64,000 bases of DNA from positions 1 through 64,000 of the IMG/VR virus record IMGVR_UViG_3300029906_000008. One strand, written 5' to 3'. Shown piece after piece: positions 2,928 to 47,019 of this stretch. The first letter of the stretch is position 1; every line of letters starts with the position of its first letter. The notes beneath the pieces are model-generated. The model was not told the origin of the DNA. It saw nothing but the letters and a program-made list of their open reading frames with translations, and ran no database searches. Made by a program: the position numbers and the translations under genes. This DNA is from a virus (lineage: Duplodnaviria; Caudoviricetes).

Positions 2928-3215
2928 CTACTCCTCCGGATAATGTGCGGTTACCGATGTGATGAACTCATTGAGCAGAGTACCTGCGTCCTCGATGAGG
3001 GAGGTAGAGCCGTTCAGGCTCATCTGTGGCTCCGAGCCTGGATTAGCATCATAACTGAAATAAACGGAGCGGTTGTTGCTGCTGTCGCTGATGATACCGT
3101 TCATTGTCACTTTGTTGGCTGAATTAACGGTTACGTCTGCCGTGATTGTCATTGTGCCCGACTGGGCCGATGCACTCTCTAAAGTGCGCCTGTTTGTGTA
3201 ACTAATCTGTAACAT
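2928..3215 (-). CDS. Hypothetical small virion or tail-associated protein
   Basis: 95 aa ORF in the operon, Ser/Thr/Asn rich. Confidence 0.55.
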   Translation of the reverse strand: MLQISYTNRRTLESASAQSGTMTITADVTVNSANKVTMNGIISDSSNNRSVYFSYDANPGSEPQMSLNGSTSLIEDAGTLLNEFITSVTAHYPEE

Positions 3216-3255
3216 AACTTTTTGGTTTTAAAATGTTTATAAATGTTGTTAAAAT

Positions 3256-4500
3256 CTATCCTATCACCGGCCCGTCCTCGTCGAAGATGTTCATCGGCTC
3301 CTGCAGCGAATCCGGCCAGATGACCCTGCAGAACAGCTCCTTGGTCAAGGGGATGCAGTTGTAGCCGGCCTCGCCGGTATCATACACCAGCGAGAAGCCG
3401 CAGAAACCGGTGGTGAACTTCGCGAAGTACTCCAGCGACTGCCCGAGGTACAGTCCGCCCGTACCGCCGGTCACCGACCAGTTCTCCAGCGAGGAGCCGC
3501 TGCCCAGGGTCACGTACCACTCCTTGCGCCTGAGCCAGTCGGTGATGCGCAGATACACATTGTCCTGATTGAGAGGAGTGTTGGCAGTACCGTGAATTAC
3601 ACCGGTGGATATGTAAAGCCGCTGTGCGTTGCTGAGGTCAAGGTATCTCGGGCTACCATACTCGACATAAGAGTAGTATTCGTAAGTATTTGTCTCCTCT
3701 GCCGACGGGCCGGTACCGATGCGCAGCGAGGATGCCGCTCCCGTGCCATTCCATTCTTGACTGCTGGTGATGTCTCCCACTGTGAACTCCGGGTCATACG
3801 TACCCGTCTTCTGGAACGTGAATCCCGGAGTGGGACTTAGTATCGTTGTAAGGTCGGGGTCGTCCGAAAGGAAGGCGTAAATGGTGCCCGCCCCATCATC
3901 CGTGCGTCCGAACTTGCACATCATGCGGTTGCTTATGAGCAGGTTCTGCGCCGTATCGTTTAAATTTATACGCCCGAGCAGGACATTGACATCCGGCACG
4001 TATGTGCCTCCTGACTTGGGCAGATGCAGCTGGAAATACAGATAGGGCACCCCTTTGTCTGTGAACAGCTGCTTCAGGTCCAGCAGTCCTATCCCGTTGG
4101 GCACTCCGCTCAGCGGCGATACGGGCGTATATCCGTCGAAGTTGTCAAGGGTTATGTCTATCTCAGGAGACCAAACGCCTATCATGTGCTCCTGCCAGTG
4201 GTCGTATCCGCGGAAGTCTCCGAGGCGGTAGGGCGAGGATGTCCCGCCCTGAGGAGGCAGATAGACGAACGAGTCCTCGGTCACGCCGCCCGTCCACGAG
4301 AGGCCGTAGTTTGCCGTACGCAGGCCCTCCCGCAGCAACGACATGTCGGCATAGTCCACAGCGGTGGAGCGGAACGGCTTGTACCTGCTCCACTTATTAA
4401 CGCCGGTATATTTGCATACACCCGATACCGTGTTCGGGAAATAGCCGAGTGCCTTCTGCACGTCACTCAGTTTCAGTTTGGTATTGCTTAACTGTGCCAT
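3256..4500 (-). CDS. Minor tail or receptor-binding candidate
   Basis: N-terminal 'LSDVQKALG...VNKWSRYKP...PYRLGDFRGY' pattern seen in Bacteroidota phage tail-associated proteins; beta-rich C-terminus. Confidence 0.55.
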   Translation of the reverse strand: MAQLSNTKLKLSDVQKALGYFPNTVSGVCKYTGVNKWSRYKPFRSTAVDYADMSLLREGLRTANYGLSWTGGVTEDSFVYLPPQGGTSSPYRLGDFRGYDHWQEHMIGVWSPEIDITLDNFDGYTPVSPLSGVPNGIGLLDLKQLFTDKGVPYLYFQLHLPKSGGTYVPDVNVLLGRINLNDTAQNLLISNRMMCKFGRTDDGAGTIYAFLSDDPDLTTILSPTPGFTFQKTGTYDPEFTVGDITSSQEWNGTGAASSLRIGTGPSAEETNTYEYYSYVEYGSPRYLDLSNAQRLYISTGVIHGTANTPLNQDNVYLRITDWLRRKEWYVTLGSGSSLENWSVTGGTGGLYLGQSLEYFAKFTTGFCGFSLVYDTGEAGYNCIPLTKELFCRVIWPDSLQEPMNIFDEDGPVIG

Positions 4501-37832: not shown

Positions 37833-38246
37833 ATGAGCAGATTTGAACTAAAGAATGAGGCCGGAGACACATGGGTTTTGACAGATACCGTCTCCGGAAT
37901 CTCGCTCCGCTTCAAGGAGCACGAACTGAACGAGACGCAGCAGGTGTCCATACCGGATTCCTTTCCGGCAGACCCAGTGAGGGCATCGAGGATAATGCGT
38001 TCGATGGGGGAATATATGTTCACCTACCATTACTCAATTGCATTCCCTGTGCCCAAATTTGAAATAAAACCGGATGAGGAGACGGGAAAACTGACAGTCA
38101 TAAGGCACACTCCGCCGAGATTCAAAATAATATTCGAGGATGAATGTGACCTGCGCAAGGCCGTCCAGAAAGTAAAGGCCGCAGCGGCATTCATGCAGGG
38201 ATATGAGCACCGCCGCAGGGCCATGCTGGGTGAGGACGAGGATTAA
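37833..38246 (+). CDS. Hypothetical protein
   Basis: 137 aa, last gene of the early cluster, convergent with int. Confidence 0.55.
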   Translation: MSRFELKNEAGDTWVLTDTVSGISLRFKEHELNETQQVSIPDSFPADPVRASRIMRSMGEYMFTYHYSIAFPVPKFEIKPDEETGKLTVIRHTPPRFKIIFEDECDLRKAVQKVKAAAAFMQGYEHRRRAMLGEDED

Positions 38247-39439
38247 TCCCTAAAGAAGCTGCTGCCTTTAAGCATCTCTGCGTTCTCTTCCTTTGACAAC
38301 TTAATATAACGCATGAAGTTCGCCTCGGTGCGATGCCCCGTTATCTTCATTATGGAGATGGCGGGGATTCCCGCTTTGTACATATTAGTAGCCGCTGTCC
38401 TCCTTGCCGTGTGGGATGTCACCAGTTCCCATTTCTCACGGTAGGTGACGGTGGTTGTCAATCCTTTCGTCTCCTTTACGGGTATTTTCTCGTTTATGCC
38501 CGCCTCCATGCAGATGCCCTTTATTATGTCGTTGAACTTCTGCTGCGATATGCCCGGCACTCCGTCGTACCTGCGCACAATCTCCGCCACTCTCGGATGG
38601 CACGGCAGCACCACGCTTTCCCCGGTCTTCTTCTGCACATAGCGGATATAGCCGTCCGATACGGCCTCCGGCTTCAAAATGGAATAGTCGGAAAAACGCA
38701 TGGCGGTGTAGCATCCTATAAGAAAAAGGTCTCTTACCTTTTCTTTCGTTCCGGTGAGATTCATCGATGCCAATTTCTCAACTTCTCCGTCAGTGAGGTA
38801 GATGTTGAACACCTCCTCAGTCTCCTTTCTTACCTTACGGAAATCAGTATTACCATGCAGTCCCTCGTCAAGGGCCTTGTTCATCGCCGTCTTGATGTTC
38901 TTAATGTGTCCGCCACGTGTATTCGGTTTGAGGTTCCTGACAGTAGCCATCCACTCAACGTAGCGGTTGAGCAGACTGACCGTTATCTCATCAAATGTAG
39001 GGTTTCTTCCCTCAAGAAATTCCCTGAACAGCCGGGCGGACTGGGCGGACTGGTTCGTAGCCTTGCGTCTCGTGGTGTCGGTTGTGGCCCATCTGTCGAA
39101 ATAGGGCAGGAACAGCTCCTTTCCTGACGATGCGGTATTCTTCACCTCTTTGCCCAAAAAGGCAAGAATCCTCTCTTTTGTCTTTTCGAGGGATACGTTG
39201 TCCAGCTCCGCCTCCCTGACGGCTGTCTCGGCGGCGTTCTTCCATCTGAGCAGGACTGCGTTCTCGGTCTTGTGGAACGGGGACTTGCGCGTCATTTGGA
39301 AATTATCCTTGTCCCATGCGTCAGTCTGCACGGTCAGTCCCGTGGATATTTTCAGCCTGCGCCCGTTGCCTCTGATGGCAAGGAACACGGGACTTGTCTG
39401 GCTGTTCGTGTCTTTGAGGATGAATGTATAGGTAATCAT
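38243..39439 (-). CDS. int: Phage integrase (Bacteroidota type: arm-binding, SAM-like and catalytic domains)
   Basis: 'CYTAMRFSD', 'TSHTARRTAATNMY', 'ITGHRTEANFMRYI'. Confidence 0.95.
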   Translation of the reverse strand: MITYTFILKDTNSQTSPVFLAIRGNGRRLKISTGLTVQTDAWDKDNFQMTRKSPFHKTENAVLLRWKNAAETAVREAELDNVSLEKTKERILAFLGKEVKNTASSGKELFLPYFDRWATTDTTRRKATNQSAQSARLFREFLEGRNPTFDEITVSLLNRYVEWMATVRNLKPNTRGGHIKNIKTAMNKALDEGLHGNTDFRKVRKETEEVFNIYLTDGEVEKLASMNLTGTKEKVRDLFLIGCYTAMRFSDYSILKPEAVSDGYIRYVQKKTGESVVLPCHPRVAEIVRRYDGVPGISQQKFNDIIKGICMEAGINEKIPVKETKGLTTTVTYREKWELVTSHTARRTAATNMYKAGIPAISIMKITGHRTEANFMRYIKLSKEENAEMLKGSSFFRD

Positions 39440-40807: not shown

Positions 40808-41221
40808 CTACCCTGCAACGGCAGAGTCTGCACCCGAGACAGCCGTATCTTGGAAATGTCTTTCCCTTAAAAGGCGGTTCTCTGCCTCCAACTGACCGAT
40901 TCTCCGTGAAAGTTCCTTTATTTCGCTGTCTTTTTCTTTTAACTGCTCTCTTAAAAAAGATTCGATACTGCTCATATTCTCCACATTCTGGGCCGTATTC
41001 TGGCCGTTTACGCGCAGCATTTCCCCTTTATTATACAGAAGCCATTCTGTGTTTAATTCGGGAAATTCATTGATAATACTCTGTAATTTATCTGCACCTA
41101 TTCCCCTTACAATGTTATTCACAAAGCCATTTGAGGCCCCTATCCTTTTTTCAAATTTTGCCTGACTGAGTTCTTTGTATTTTATAAACTCAATAAGTCT
41201 TTGTTTAATAGTGGTTTCCAT
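40808..41221 (-). CDS. CI-like repressor (HTH, C-terminal coiled coil)
   Basis: 'IKQRLIEFIKYKELSQAKFEKRIGASNGFV...KLQSIINEFPELNTEWLL...GEM'; start ATG 41221. Confidence 0.85.
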   Translation of the reverse strand: METTIKQRLIEFIKYKELSQAKFEKRIGASNGFVNNIVRGIGADKLQSIINEFPELNTEWLLYNKGEMLRVNGQNTAQNVENMSSIESFLREQLKEKDSEIKELSRRIGQLEAENRLLRERHFQDTAVSGADSAVAG

Positions 41222-41260
41222 ATTTATGCTAAATTTTCTTTGAATTTTCTCTATAAAAAA

Positions 41261-41292
41261 TTTGCACAAATACAGAGAACTCTCTATATTTG
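41261..41292 (+). promoter_or_regulatory. Lytic promoter with AGAGA-AC-TCTCT palindrome (putative operator)
   Basis: TTTG, 20 nt spacer, TATATTTG, divergent from the repressor. Confidence 0.65.
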
Positions 41293-42906: not shown

Positions 42907-43064
42907 AAGCACTTGTCATAATCCACACGATTACAACCATTGTCTGCGCCGCACTTGCGTCCATAGCCCTTTGCGCTGCGCTGTTCTGCGGCAAGTGGCA
43001 CTGCCTGTTCACCTCTGCCATGCTGGGCGGGCTGACATGGGTAGGGATTCATTCAGTCAAGTAA
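42903..43064 (+). CDS. Small membrane protein
   Basis: Manual translation MKALVIIHTITTIVCAALASIALCAALFCGKWHCLFTSAMLGGLTWVGIHSVK. Confidence 0.5.
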   Translation: MKALVIIHTITTIVCAALASIALCAALFCGKWHCLFTSAMLGGLTWVGIHSVK

Positions 43065-43065
43065 G

Positions 43066-43281
43066 ATGTGGTCGGAGAACAGAGTGATTCCCTCTGACAG
43101 GGAGTTCGATGCGCACGTGTTCCGCTCCTGCATCTGCCCGGTCTGCGGAGGCTCGGGATGGCTTCCGGCAGGGCCGGACGGAGAGAGCATGGAGCATGGT
43201 GAGTGGGCGGCACTGCCCGTGGATGAGCGGTGCCGCATCACCTGCCCCGCCTGTGACGGAGGCGGGTACGTGCAGGAGTAA
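43066..43281 (+). CDS. Small DnaJ-type zinc-finger protein
   Basis: CPVCGGSG and CPACDGGG motifs. Confidence 0.6.
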   Translation: MWSENRVIPSDREFDAHVFRSCICPVCGGSGWLPAGPDGESMEHGEWAALPVDERCRITCPACDGGGYVQE

Positions 43282-43282
43282 A

Positions 43283-43370
43283 CGGGAGGAAAGGAAGTTC
43301 TTATATCTGCTGTTTTCATATTCATAATTTAGAGTGTTTCAGAGGGGTTCGATTCCCCTCCCTCCCGCAA
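43283..43370 (+). ncRNA. tRNA-like element
   Basis: CGGGAGG/CCTCCCG stem, GAGGGG-TTCGATT-CCCCTC T-arm, 3' CAA. Confidence 0.5.
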
Positions 43371-43390
43371 AATTCATATAAATATATCTT

Positions 43391-43663
43391 ATGTACAAAC
43401 TTTTCGACTTTAATGAGGATTCCGGTATCCTCAATGTAACCCTGCCGCGGGGCAGGACGATGGCCGAACTGACAAGGGAATGCTCGGCACAGATACACGA
43501 CTTAATCTTGCAGAAGAGAGTCTTCGGCAAGGATGTGAGCATAAACGGGCGCATCACCACGAGCATAGCTCTCGTGCTGGGGCACGAGCTGAGCCATGTG
43601 TGCCGCTCGGTGAGAATCTTCAATCCAAAGGAAGACGAGTATGTCGAATGTATAAAGCACTGA
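43391..43663 (+). CDS. Csx3/Crn3-like protein
   Basis: 'GKDVSINGR.....LVLGHELSHV.RSV.IFNP' matches the Csx3 pattern G.V.I.GR...LAH..AH....V.VYDP as recalled. Confidence 0.6.
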   Translation: MYKLFDFNEDSGILNVTLPRGRTMAELTRECSAQIHDLILQKRVFGKDVSINGRITTSIALVLGHELSHVCRSVRIFNPKEDEYVECIKH

Positions 43664-43665
43664 GT

Positions 43666-44094
43666 ATGGCACTGAATAAAGTAATGCTTATCGGGAATAT
43701 CGGCAGGGACCCGGATACGAGATTTATAGAAAGCAGCGGCGCCTTAACCGCGAGTTTCACCCTTGCCACGACAGAGAGGTTTAAGGACAGAATCACGGGA
43801 GAGACCAAGGAGGTGACTGAGTGGCACAATATAGTATGTTGGAGGAATCTGGCAGAGATAGCTGAAAAATATATCACAAAAGGCTCCCAGCTTTTCGTCG
43901 AGGGCCGCATCCGCACCCGTTCCTACAAGGACAAAAACGGAGATACAAGATATGTTACCGAAATTATGGCCGACAACATACAGCTTCTCGGACGCAGGGA
44001 TGCAGGACAGCAGGAACATGGTAAGCGCGGATACACTGCTCCCCGAACCGAAGCGGGCAATCGTAGCGGCAGCAGCGATGATATAATGTTTTAA
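43666..44094 (+). CDS. ssb: Single-stranded DNA-binding protein
   Basis: 'LNKVMLIGNIGRDP', 'TEWHNIVCW', 'VEGRIRTRSY', acidic tail; start ATG 43666. Confidence 0.95.
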   Translation: MALNKVMLIGNIGRDPDTRFIESSGALTASFTLATTERFKDRITGETKEVTEWHNIVCWRNLAEIAEKYITKGSQLFVEGRIRTRSYKDKNGDTRYVTEIMADNIQLLGRRDAGQQEHGKRGYTAPRTEAGNRSGSSDDIMF

Positions 44095-44940: not shown

Positions 44941-47019
44941 ATGAGCAGCAGATATGCGCAGATGAGCAAGGAGGAGCAGGACAACCTGCTCTCCGGCTTC
45001 ATGATTGACTCATGGAGTTACTCAAAGGTCGCGAGTTTCGCCCGCAACGAGAAATCCTTTGAGAAGGAGGAGATTTTCGGAGAAAGGGGAAGACGCTCCG
45101 CTGCAAGTGTGGCCGGGAACGCCTACCATGAGGCCCTGAAAGAATACTTCCTGAATCTTAAGGACGGAATAGACACCGGTCTTACCGAGCTGCAGGGAGT
45201 AGCCTACTCCTACATAGACGGCATCCCCGCCAACTGGTGGAAGCTGCAAAAGACCACCCCCACTGTCGAGGCCTGCGTCGTGTCAGCGAACAAGGACGTC
45301 AACGCGCTTCTTATGAACTTCTATAAGGAGAAGGATATATATCTCTGCGGTCTGTCCGAGGTGCTCAATGTGGAGGTCAATGCCGATGCGTGGGTGACTG
45401 TCAACGGAGTGGACATACCGATGCCGTGCCACTCCATTATAGACCTCATCATACGCACTGATGACGGGAGGTGCGTCCTCATAGACCATAAATCTGTAAG
45501 GACGTACACCTCATCGGACGAGGTCGCGCTGACAAGGGGCAAGCAGGGCATCACATACGTGAAGACCGCTGAGACGGTCTTCGGAATCCATGTTGACGAG
45601 GTCAGGTTCATAGAGAACAAGGCCACGGCCAACAAGGACAAATCACCGCAGCTGAGGCAGTTCTCAATAACGATGGATGAGGATACAAGGAGACTGTACG
45701 AGGCCATGCTGTACGAGCCTCTGAGGAGGATGATTCAGGCCGTATCCGACCCTGATTACGTATATATGGTGAACGATTCCGATAGTTTCGCCGACAGGGC
45801 GGAGATATATGACTTCTGGGTCAGGACCATGATATCCGAGGTGGATGACTTCAATGTCCCCGACAACAAGAAGGAGCTTGTGAGCCGCAGGCTGCGCAAA
45901 ATCCGTGACTCATCGCTCGTGGGCATAAGCCCGAGAGTGATTACCGCTTTCAGGAAGAATGCGGCATCCTTCATCAATTATGATTACAGCAATATGGACA
46001 ACAAGGAAAAAATAGAACACGTGCTCAGGACTTTCGGCATAGGCGTGAAAGTGGCTCATGAGCTCTCGGGCTACTCCTCCAACACTTATCTGCTGGAGGT
46101 GTCCGCGGGAGTGAGAATATCCAACATCATAAATTACCGCATGGACATAGCGAACGCCCTCGACGTCCCGTCCGTAAGGATTCTTCCGGAGCTCTCGGTG
46201 TACGACGGCAAGTCCTATCTGGCGATAGAGTCGTCCAAGAAACGCACTGAGTCCCTGCCGTGGGATATAAAATATCTCGAAGGCATGAGGATACCGCTCG
46301 GTGTGGACAACTTCGGCAGGACGGTTGTATGGGATATATTGAACCACTCCACCCCGCACATGCTCATTTGCGGGGCCACGGGGTCGGGAAAGTCCGTCTC
46401 CATTCTCTCCACTGTTGAGTATGCGAGGAGAGCAGGTGTTAAGGACATTGTGATCATGGACCCCAAATACGAGTTCACAAGATACACCTCCCAGCCAGGC
46501 ATGAAGGTGTTCAACGATATCATGGACATAGAGACAGCGATGAAGGATCTCGTCAAGGACATGCAGTCGAGGGCCTCGGGAGGCGGAACGCGTCTGACAC
46601 TCGTTGTGTTCGACGAGTTCGCTGACGCGGTCCAGTCATCCAGGCAGGGCAAGCAGCTTGACATACGCGAGATGAGGCAAGATGGATTCTACGCGAACGG
46701 AATACCGAAGATGAAGGAGGTTGTCGTTGGGCGGGAAAAATCGCTGGAGGAGAACATGAGAATGCTGCTCCAGAAAGGACGCTCACTTGGGTTTCGTGTG
46801 ATAGCCGCAACGCAGAGGGCCTCCGCAAAGGTCATCACCGGGGACGCAAAGGTGAATTTCCCCGTACAGGTCTGCTTCCGTGTGCCCAAGGAGATTGACA
46901 GCAAGGTCGTGCTGGACGAGGCCGGGGCCGAGACGCTGCAAGGTCAGGGAGACGGGCTTGTGCGCTCTCCGGAGTATATGGGTGTGGTCAGGTTTCAGGG
47001 ATTTTATTACAAGGAGTGA
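44941..47019 (+). CDS. PD-(D/E)XK nuclease fused to an FtsK/SpoIIIE ATPase
   Basis: N-terminus 'WSYSKV...GNAYHEAL...IDLI...IDHKS'; C-terminus 'PHMLICGATGSGKS', 'VFDEFAD', 'ATQRAS', 'GAETLQGQGDGL'. Confidence 0.85.
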   Translation: MSSRYAQMSKEEQDNLLSGFMIDSWSYSKVASFARNEKSFEKEEIFGERGRRSAASVAGNAYHEALKEYFLNLKDGIDTGLTELQGVAYSYIDGIPANWWKLQKTTPTVEACVVSANKDVNALLMNFYKEKDIYLCGLSEVLNVEVNADAWVTVNGVDIPMPCHSIIDLIIRTDDGRCVLIDHKSVRTYTSSDEVALTRGKQGITYVKTAETVFGIHVDEVRFIENKATANKDKSPQLRQFSITMDEDTRRLYEAMLYEPLRRMIQAVSDPDYVYMVNDSDSFADRAEIYDFWVRTMISEVDDFNVPDNKKELVSRRLRKIRDSSLVGISPRVITAFRKNAASFINYDYSNMDNKEKIEHVLRTFGIGVKVAHELSGYSSNTYLLEVSAGVRISNIINYRMDIANALDVPSVRILPELSVYDGKSYLAIESSKKRTESLPWDIKYLEGMRIPLGVDNFGRTVVWDILNHSTPHMLICGATGSGKSVSILSTVEYARRAGVKDIVIMDPKYEFTRYTSQPGMKVFNDIMDIETAMKDLVKDMQSRASGGGTRLTLVVFDEFADAVQSSRQGKQLDIREMRQDGFYANGIPKMKEVVVGREKSLEENMRMLLQKGRSLGFRVIAATQRASAKVITGDAKVNFPVQVCFRVPKEIDSKVVLDEAGAETLQGQGDGLVRSPEYMGVVRFQGFYYKE

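Follow-up and report, generated by a model that had tools for sequence, protein, structure and literature searches.

Viruses are known to disarm cyclic-oligoadenylate signalling mainly by means of viral ring nucleases, of which only two families, AcrIII-1 (Crn2-type) and AcrIII-2 (SAVED-type), are characterised. The reference for a further ring nuclease, Crn3/Csx3, is AF_1864 of Archaeoglobus fulgidus (AfCsx3; PDB 3WZG, 3WZH, 3WZI, 6VJG and 6YUD; family models PF09620 and TIGR02579), and a phage-borne Csx3 is not described in the Csx3/Crn3 literature that we found by search. Here, we analyse a stretch of 64,000 nucleotides (nt) of a Caudoviricetes phage (positions 1 to 64,000 of the IMG/VR virus record IMGVR_UViG_3300029906_000008; hereafter, the window) that carries an open reading frame (ORF) for a protein of 90 amino acids (aa). 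This protein, which lies outside PF09620 in the strict sense, belongs to a divergent clade that is sister to Csx3/Crn3 and carried mostly by phages. By analogy with AfCsx3, we consider it fairly likely that the gene encodes a minimal Crn3-type protein that neutralises signalling by cyclic tetra-adenylate (cA4) in host type III CRISPR systems early in infection, the copy in the window being a weakened nuclease or a sequestering form. The concept of a viral ring nuclease is already established; what is new is a Crn3-type protein circulating in phages, in a minimal form of 85-100 aa.

The proposed relationship of this gene to Crn3 is that of AcrIII-1 (DUF1874, the viral Crn2 counterpart) to its cellular ring nuclease. 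Both are small viral proteins for which the proposed task is the removal of cA4 against type III signalling; unlike the window protein, AcrIII-1 has an apparently unrelated fold, a metal-independent mechanism and an activity established in vitro and in vivo. AcrIII-2 (PDB 9R8S), the viral SAVED ring nuclease, is a two-domain monomer of ~240 aa with other catalytic residues and is apparently no sequence relative. The window protein is ~18% identical to AfCsx3, from which it differs in being phage-encoded, in having no cas neighbours and in carrying, in this copy, an Asn for Asp69. Compared with cellular Csx3, the phage clade stops exactly at the H80 equivalent, without a 'DPxYxVGD'-type tail, and has a conserved L-P-x-G motif in its N-terminal hairpin.

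Hoikkala et al. (2025) applied ring-nuclease hidden Markov models (HMMs) to 28,114 phage genomes and found AcrIII-1 in 36, Csx20 in 4 and Csx16 in 2, Crn3 not being reported. A 2026 paper lists eight extrinsic ring-nuclease families, some of them encoded by viruses and plasmids. We found no convincing match for the 90-aa protein in BFVD (viral UniProt models), and tblastn of 50,697 deposited phage genomes gave none with either the window protein or P0019. The absence of the clade from both collections, together with the blindness of Pfam described below, explains why such surveys would miss it. Since the Pfam and TIGRFAM models fail on this 85-100-aa clade, HMM surveys undercount phage counter-defence.

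Relationship of the 90-aa protein to Csx3/Crn3

The ORF extends over 43391-43663 on the (+) strand, with an ATG at 43391 and a TGA at 43661-43663, exactly as given in the initial annotation, which had proposed a stand-alone Csx3/Crn3-like protein from sequence motifs. In direct searches, the protein had no Csx3 match in Pfam (even at E 1), PHROGs, NCBIfam (TIGR02579) or, by phmmer, the PDB. The relationship appears through intermediates. An exhaustive HMMER (phmmer) search of 1.84 billion cluster representatives gave 47 matches, 19 of them with E < 1e-10. One of these, P0020, matches the window protein at E 2.5e-17 and scores 44.8 bits on PF09620 (Cas_csx3; cut-off 21); it is one of eight longer matches that pass the Pfam threshold. 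The short family representatives match PF09620 in 7 of 34 cases. Pfam missed 9 of the 10 short phage-type members tested, P0050 reaching merely 13.1 bits.

We then compared two groups of the family as profiles: A5, the short, Pfam-invisible phage-type group (23 sequences), and A6, six single-domain Pfam-positive proteins with a Csx3-type C-terminal extension. Aligned by hhalign, they matched with 99.6% probability (E 8e-25, 92 columns), and the A6 profile run against the PDB matched AfCsx3 chains alone, weakly (E 0.05). Through these intermediates (P0020 and the A5-A6 alignment), sequence comparison indicates that the 90-aa protein is homologous to bona fide Csx3. The failure of PF09620 and TIGR02579 on the clade is a limit of model sensitivity. 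A search of the PDB with another profile, A2, was set aside, as it returned mostly spurious Kelch-repeat matches to a 'FDPKENxY' motif, with AfCsx3 at E 0.8.

Structure prediction points in the same direction. The predicted order of secondary structure elements is b1 (residues 5-8), b2 (13-16), a1 (24-40), b3 (48-52), a2 (57-68), b4 (73-78) and b5 (83-89). An AlphaFold2 model built on close homologues reached a mean predicted local distance difference test score (pLDDT) of 87.7. The initial annotation had suggested comparing such a model with Csx3 by Foldseek; in this comparison AfCsx3 (6yud) ranked first, with a probability of 0.99 and an E-value of 0.03 only. In the ESM Atlas, the shape search gave a template modelling (TM) score of 0.79 over 87 residues to a Csx3 cluster of 391 members, and the feature search returned Cas_csx3 clusters whose commonest labelled phylum was Uroviricota. 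The 90-aa protein is thus predicted to have the Csx3 fold, and the resemblance to the Csx3 core first noticed in the sequence is now backed by transitive homology, profile-profile comparison, the predicted fold and, as shown later in the text, a predicted dimer and residue mapping.

We file the protein in a sister clade, and not in Csx3 proper, because the curated models miss it, it has neither the C-terminal extension nor an association with CRISPR loci, and Asn stands for the catalytic Asp in this copy. A word-indexed search of 5.8 billion proteins gave 18 close homologues at 53-92% identity, all of them unnamed metagenomic proteins. Megablast of the 6-kb region gave no match, and a search for related loci in IMG/VR, and likewise in GTDB species genomes, gave none. 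Tandem and AAA-fused Csx3 proteins, which are distant cellular types, occur among the matches of the exhaustive search; the word-index search gave no longer fused form, which is weak evidence. A separate case is P0023 (516 aa), in which six separate matches to query residues 14-60 appear, as would be seen with a tandem repeat of the N-terminal half. Pfam gives this protein no meaningful match and its C-terminus looks out of frame, so that it may result from an error of assembly or frame.

Conserved residues and predicted dimer

Residues were mapped through HMMER alignments of P0052 and A6 to AfCsx3, with the residue roles taken from PMC7371418, and conservation was counted over 34 family representatives. 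The positions are as follows:

43544..43552 (+): N52-G53-R54 loop, equivalent to AfCsx3 S44-G45-R46 (cA4 contacts); G53 in 34/34, R54 in 22/34
43583..43597 (+): H65 to H69 on helix a2, at the predicted dimer axis; H65 equivalent to AfCsx3 H57 (29/34); H69 equivalent to AfCsx3 H60 or H61, ambiguous through a one-residue indel (27/34)
43622..43630 (+): N78-P79-K80, equivalent to AfCsx3 D69-P70-R71; at the D69 position (N78) Asp in 29/34, P79 (P70) in 32/34, Lys or Arg at the R71 position (K80) in 28/34
43658..43660 (+): C-terminal residue H90, equivalent to AfCsx3 H80 (28/34)

The three Csx3 histidine equivalents (H65, H69 and H90) are all present in the window protein. In the VIA alignment, residues 1-90 of the model map onto the AfCsx3 chain up to residue 80. 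The motifs quoted in the initial annotation are found in the protein as G46..V49.I51-N52-G53-R54, L61-V-L-G-H65-E-L-S-H69-V and V74-R-I-F-N78-P79, although its spacing was one dot too short between the first G and V. Judged from the aligned sequences, the clade as a whole keeps the catalytic and ligand signature of Csx3, namely the N/S-G-R loop, the two helix histidines, D-P-K/R and the final His.

Prediction of two copies of the protein gave an ipSAE (interaction prediction score from aligned errors) of 0.77, against 0.02 for the best control. In the calibration of the method, 20 of the 30 homodimers with a solved structure attained this mark, as did 1 of the 23 monomers; AfCsx3 dimers are themselves already solved, so that the result may partly reflect likeness to them. 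Three runs shared at least 97% of the contacts, with a partner pLDDT of at least 87. The predicted interface consists of helix a2 and strands b4 and b5, with cross-axis contacts 65-65, 64-64 and 60-60. The contact of H65 with H65 agrees with AfCsx3, in which the two protomers bring their H57 and H60 together at the symmetry plane (PMC7371418). The model supports, without proving it, a homodimer with conserved histidines on the two-fold axis, a Csx3-like assembly.

The gene and its phage

The Csx3-like ORF is a real conserved gene and no chance frame. An identical 90-aa protein is present on 6 contigs from three sources. Contigs of related strains, taken from four other sequencing runs, show 15 listed single-nucleotide polymorphisms within the gene, of which 11 lie at third codon positions, an excess indicating purifying selection on this frame.

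The IMG/VR record that holds the window comprises 73,315 base pairs (bp) and is estimated by CheckV to be 100% complete; DNA of the phage is present in runs from chicken-gut, bird, manure and faeces metagenomes of several studies. The phage is a complete temperate phage of ~73 kb from the chicken gut. From the type of its integrase, its host is probably a member of the Bacteroidota; an integrase scan of genome contigs, made for the host beyond phylum, gave no match. A 10.6-kb contig from a chicken-gut metatranscriptome library (run X17) covers 43000-43641 of the window, which includes the zinc-ribbon gene, the tRNA-like element and, as far as 43641, the Csx3-like gene. We do not take it as proof of transcription, as contigs from RNA libraries can derive from DNA.

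An Asn allele at the catalytic position

The initial annotation had pointed to an Asn nine residues after the second His, where Crn3 has a catalytic Asp, and this residue is indeed encoded (Asn78, codon AAT, 43622-43624); the codon of most relatives is GAC (Asp). Within the protein's own 90% cluster, 14 of 16 aligned members have Asp at this position and two have Asn, the window protein and P0072. The latter differs from the window protein at about nine other positions and is thus another haplotype background; Asn78 is found on two such backgrounds (P0062 and P0072). Position 43622 carries a G, giving GAC (Asp), in the DNA runs X5 and X7 from separate studies. Run X8 (manure) contains both an Asp and an Asn contig, with G and A at 43622, and in the RNA library X17 an A at 43622 gives the codon AAC (Asn). 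Two backgrounds, two codons (AAT and AAC), separate studies and coexistence with Asp show that Asn78 is no sequencing error. It is a genuine allele that segregates alongside Asp.

The position is altered further in four representatives (P0021, P0027, P0039 and P0041), in which V/A-P-M/Q replaces D-P-K, both helix histidines and the terminal His being kept; these proteins may be non-catalytic or mechanistically different. In AfCsx3, D69 contacts R71, which grips the scissile phosphate, and the D69A variant has no ring-nuclease activity (PMC7371418). The inactive AfCsx3 variant H60A forms cA4-dependent fibres (PMC7371418), from which it follows that a dead variant could in principle sequester cA4.

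Proposed function and alternatives

Extrapolating ligand, catalysis and anti-CRISPR effect from AfCsx3, we propose the following mechanism. Two 90-aa protomers would pair through helix a2 into a homodimer. H65, H69 and the C-terminal H90 would lie on one of its faces, as a likely Mn2+ site, and the N52-G53-R54 loop and residues 78-80 on the opposite face. Dimers would stack head to tail around the cA4 made by Cas10 of the host type III CRISPR system, and this second messenger would be removed early in infection, so that CARF effectors would stay inactive. Most members of the family, which keep the full catalytic signature, are probably true nucleases. Because Asn78 replaces an essential Asp, the copy in the window probably cleaves slowly or mainly sequesters cA4: Asn78 could still hydrogen-bond Lys80, giving a slower enzyme, or the protein may only bind. 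Taken together, these comparisons make the gene a plausible and credible phage counter-defence candidate.

Several observations weigh against this proposal. PF09620 and TIGR02579 give the window protein no direct match, even at E 1. Asn78 stands in place of an Asp whose exchange for alanine inactivates AfCsx3. K80 replaces AfCsx3 R71; Lys is also usual in the Pfam-positive group A6, where D78-P79-K80 is invariant. Finally, the host is probably a member of the Bacteroidota, and some Bacteroidetes type III systems signal with S-adenosylmethionine-AMP (SAM-AMP) instead.

The best of the alternatives, which overlaps with the proposed function, is that the Asn78 form is a pure sponge, catalytically dead and binding cA4 between stacked dimers in a stoichiometric filament, while the Asp78 alleles of sister phages are nucleases. 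The AfCsx3 D69A and H60A variants, inactive and fibre-forming, respectively, agree with it. So do the status of Asn78 as a real allele, on two backgrounds, with two codons and next to Asp in one sample, and the four representatives with V or A at position 78, which lose the following Lys and keep the histidines. However, an Asn may hydrogen-bond the neighbouring Lys, so that activity is perhaps merely reduced; we found no data on a D-to-N exchange in a Csx3 protein; the polymorphism might have almost no effect on fitness or a slightly harmful one; and 1:1 sequestration requires high expression. On balance, we regard a pure sponge as rather unlikely. Phage sponges for cyclic nucleotides (e.g. 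an anti-CBASS protein, directed at the cyclic-oligonucleotide-based antiphage signalling system, which takes up cyclic tri- and dinucleotides) offer a possible functional analogy for Asn78, as they sequester and do not cleave. No homology to them was detected with the search tools applied. Their ligand is bound within oligomers that exist beforehand; a sponge of the Csx3 type would instead polymerise around its own.

An extension of this idea, which we hold with little conviction, is that Asp78 and Asn78 represent two working modes: the Asp proteins would be ring nucleases, the Asn and V-P-M/Q forms dead, filament-forming cA4 sponges, and both would be kept, suiting hosts of different type III signalling strength. 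It is likewise improbable that the same fold serves another ligand, with cyclic tri- or hexa-adenylate (cA3, cA6), CBASS products or SAM-AMP being bound or degraded, since the conserved residues map specifically onto the cA4 site and the histidine face of AfCsx3 and Crn3 is described as cA4-specific.

Should the proposed cA4 ring nuclease be active, the viral enzymes that act against type III systems would comprise a third structural class, and the protein would be a compact tool to turn cA4 signalling off. The naturally occurring Asp and Asn forms, the former likely active and the latter likely impaired, are ready for comparison, with cluster member P0064 or P0001 giving the sequence of an Asp78 version.

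The upstream tRNA-like element

A conserved tRNA-like element directly precedes the gene, with the following parts:

43284..43369 (+): tRNA-like element, 21 nt upstream of the Csx3-like gene
43284-43289 with 43361-43366: acceptor-like stem of 6 bp, GGGAGG/CCTCCC
43342-43347 with 43355-43360: T arm, GAGGGG/CCCCTC, with the loop TTCGATT, then G-CAA; the middle is variable

We rejected the region as a tRNA gene, as neither ARAGORN nor Rfam calls one. The fold z-score of the element is -2.25, and its 5' and 3' parts are kept in seven related phage loci, where one base pair of the T stem shows a compensatory change from A-U to C-G. It resembles other tRNA-like elements of the phage. Some gene callers have taken it for coding sequence, so that P0006-P0012 and P0074 are Csx3-like proteins with a false N-terminal extension.

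The position of this element, in the window and in six related close-clade loci, and the presence of others in the phage could be read as pointing to RNA, the protein being an Mn-dependent 3' exoribonuclease or an RNA binder directed at phage or host RNA, perhaps at the phage tRNA-like elements ending in CAA. AfCsx3 was first described as an Mn-dependent deadenylating exoribonuclease and binds an RNA tetranucleotide. Its ribonuclease activity has since been reinterpreted as ring-nuclease activity, more distant homologues lie in other contexts, and adjacency alone is weak evidence. We therefore find an RNA-directed role very improbable.

Genomic context

The genes around the Csx3-like gene are as follows:

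38243-39439 (-): integrase
40808-41269 (-): cI-like repressor
After the repressor in the layout: small Cro-like ORF and HTH_17 excisionase-like gene
Between the excisionase-like gene and the zinc-ribbon gene: tRNA-like RNAs and small ORFs
43066-43281 (+): 71-aa double-CxxC zinc-ribbon protein
43666-44094: single-stranded DNA-binding protein (SSB), directly downstream of the Csx3-like gene
After SSB: phrog_3657 protein
44941-47019 (+): PD-(D/E)XK-FtsK fusion of 692 aa, with an N-terminal PD-(D/E)XK nuclease and FtsK alpha and FtsK/SpoIIIE ATPase domains

From this layout, the Csx3-like gene belongs to the rightward early operon of a temperate phage, so that the early phage setting assumed at the outset was correct. 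The lack of cas genes also held: none was seen among the neighbours within ~5 kb in the window, the part of its 64 kb that was scanned for them, nor among those called in 18 related loci. All of these neighbourhoods are of phage or prophage-like type, and no genomic association with type III CRISPR-Cas is seen in them. Relatives vary in their surroundings:

L002 (68% identity): phage of the window's type
L003-L005 (47%): groundwater phage, between an AAA_24 ATPase and DUF669, with nuclease, helicase and primase-polymerase
L006 (43%): first gene after a divergent integrase/repressor pair
L007 (41%): beside portal, neck, scaffold and major head genes

A change of partners is also seen with the protein itself held constant. 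The identical protein P0063 (gene ~3001-3273) is followed in L014, L015 and L017 by SSB, a 257/276-aa protein and the PD-(D/E)XK-FtsK fusion, and in L016, L018 and L019 by an unrelated module (227 aa, 301 aa and DUF3127). The two downstream modules indicate a mosaic joint, a swap of recombination modules right after the stop codon. Together with the varied phage settings, they form the pattern of a mobile accessory gene; such variability suits a counter-defence or mobile accessory gene and speaks against a constant pairing with SSB. A non-defence role, as a small replication/recombination accessory factor or a STAS-like regulatory module, could draw on the position immediately upstream of SSB here and of the DUF669 gene in the groundwater phage, but it can hardly be upheld when the identical protein precedes two unrelated modules, other relatives stand beside repressor or head genes and the conserved positions are the catalytic and ligand residues of Csx3.

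Among the neighbours, the 71-aa zinc-ribbon protein has weak Anti-TRAP and DnaJ CXXCXGXG-like matches, and in close relatives an 80-aa counterpart immediately precedes the tRNA-like element, which is followed by the Csx3-like gene. The C-terminal half of the 692-aa fusion is ~30% identical to FtsK-like translocases of mycobacteriophages and human-faeces phages.
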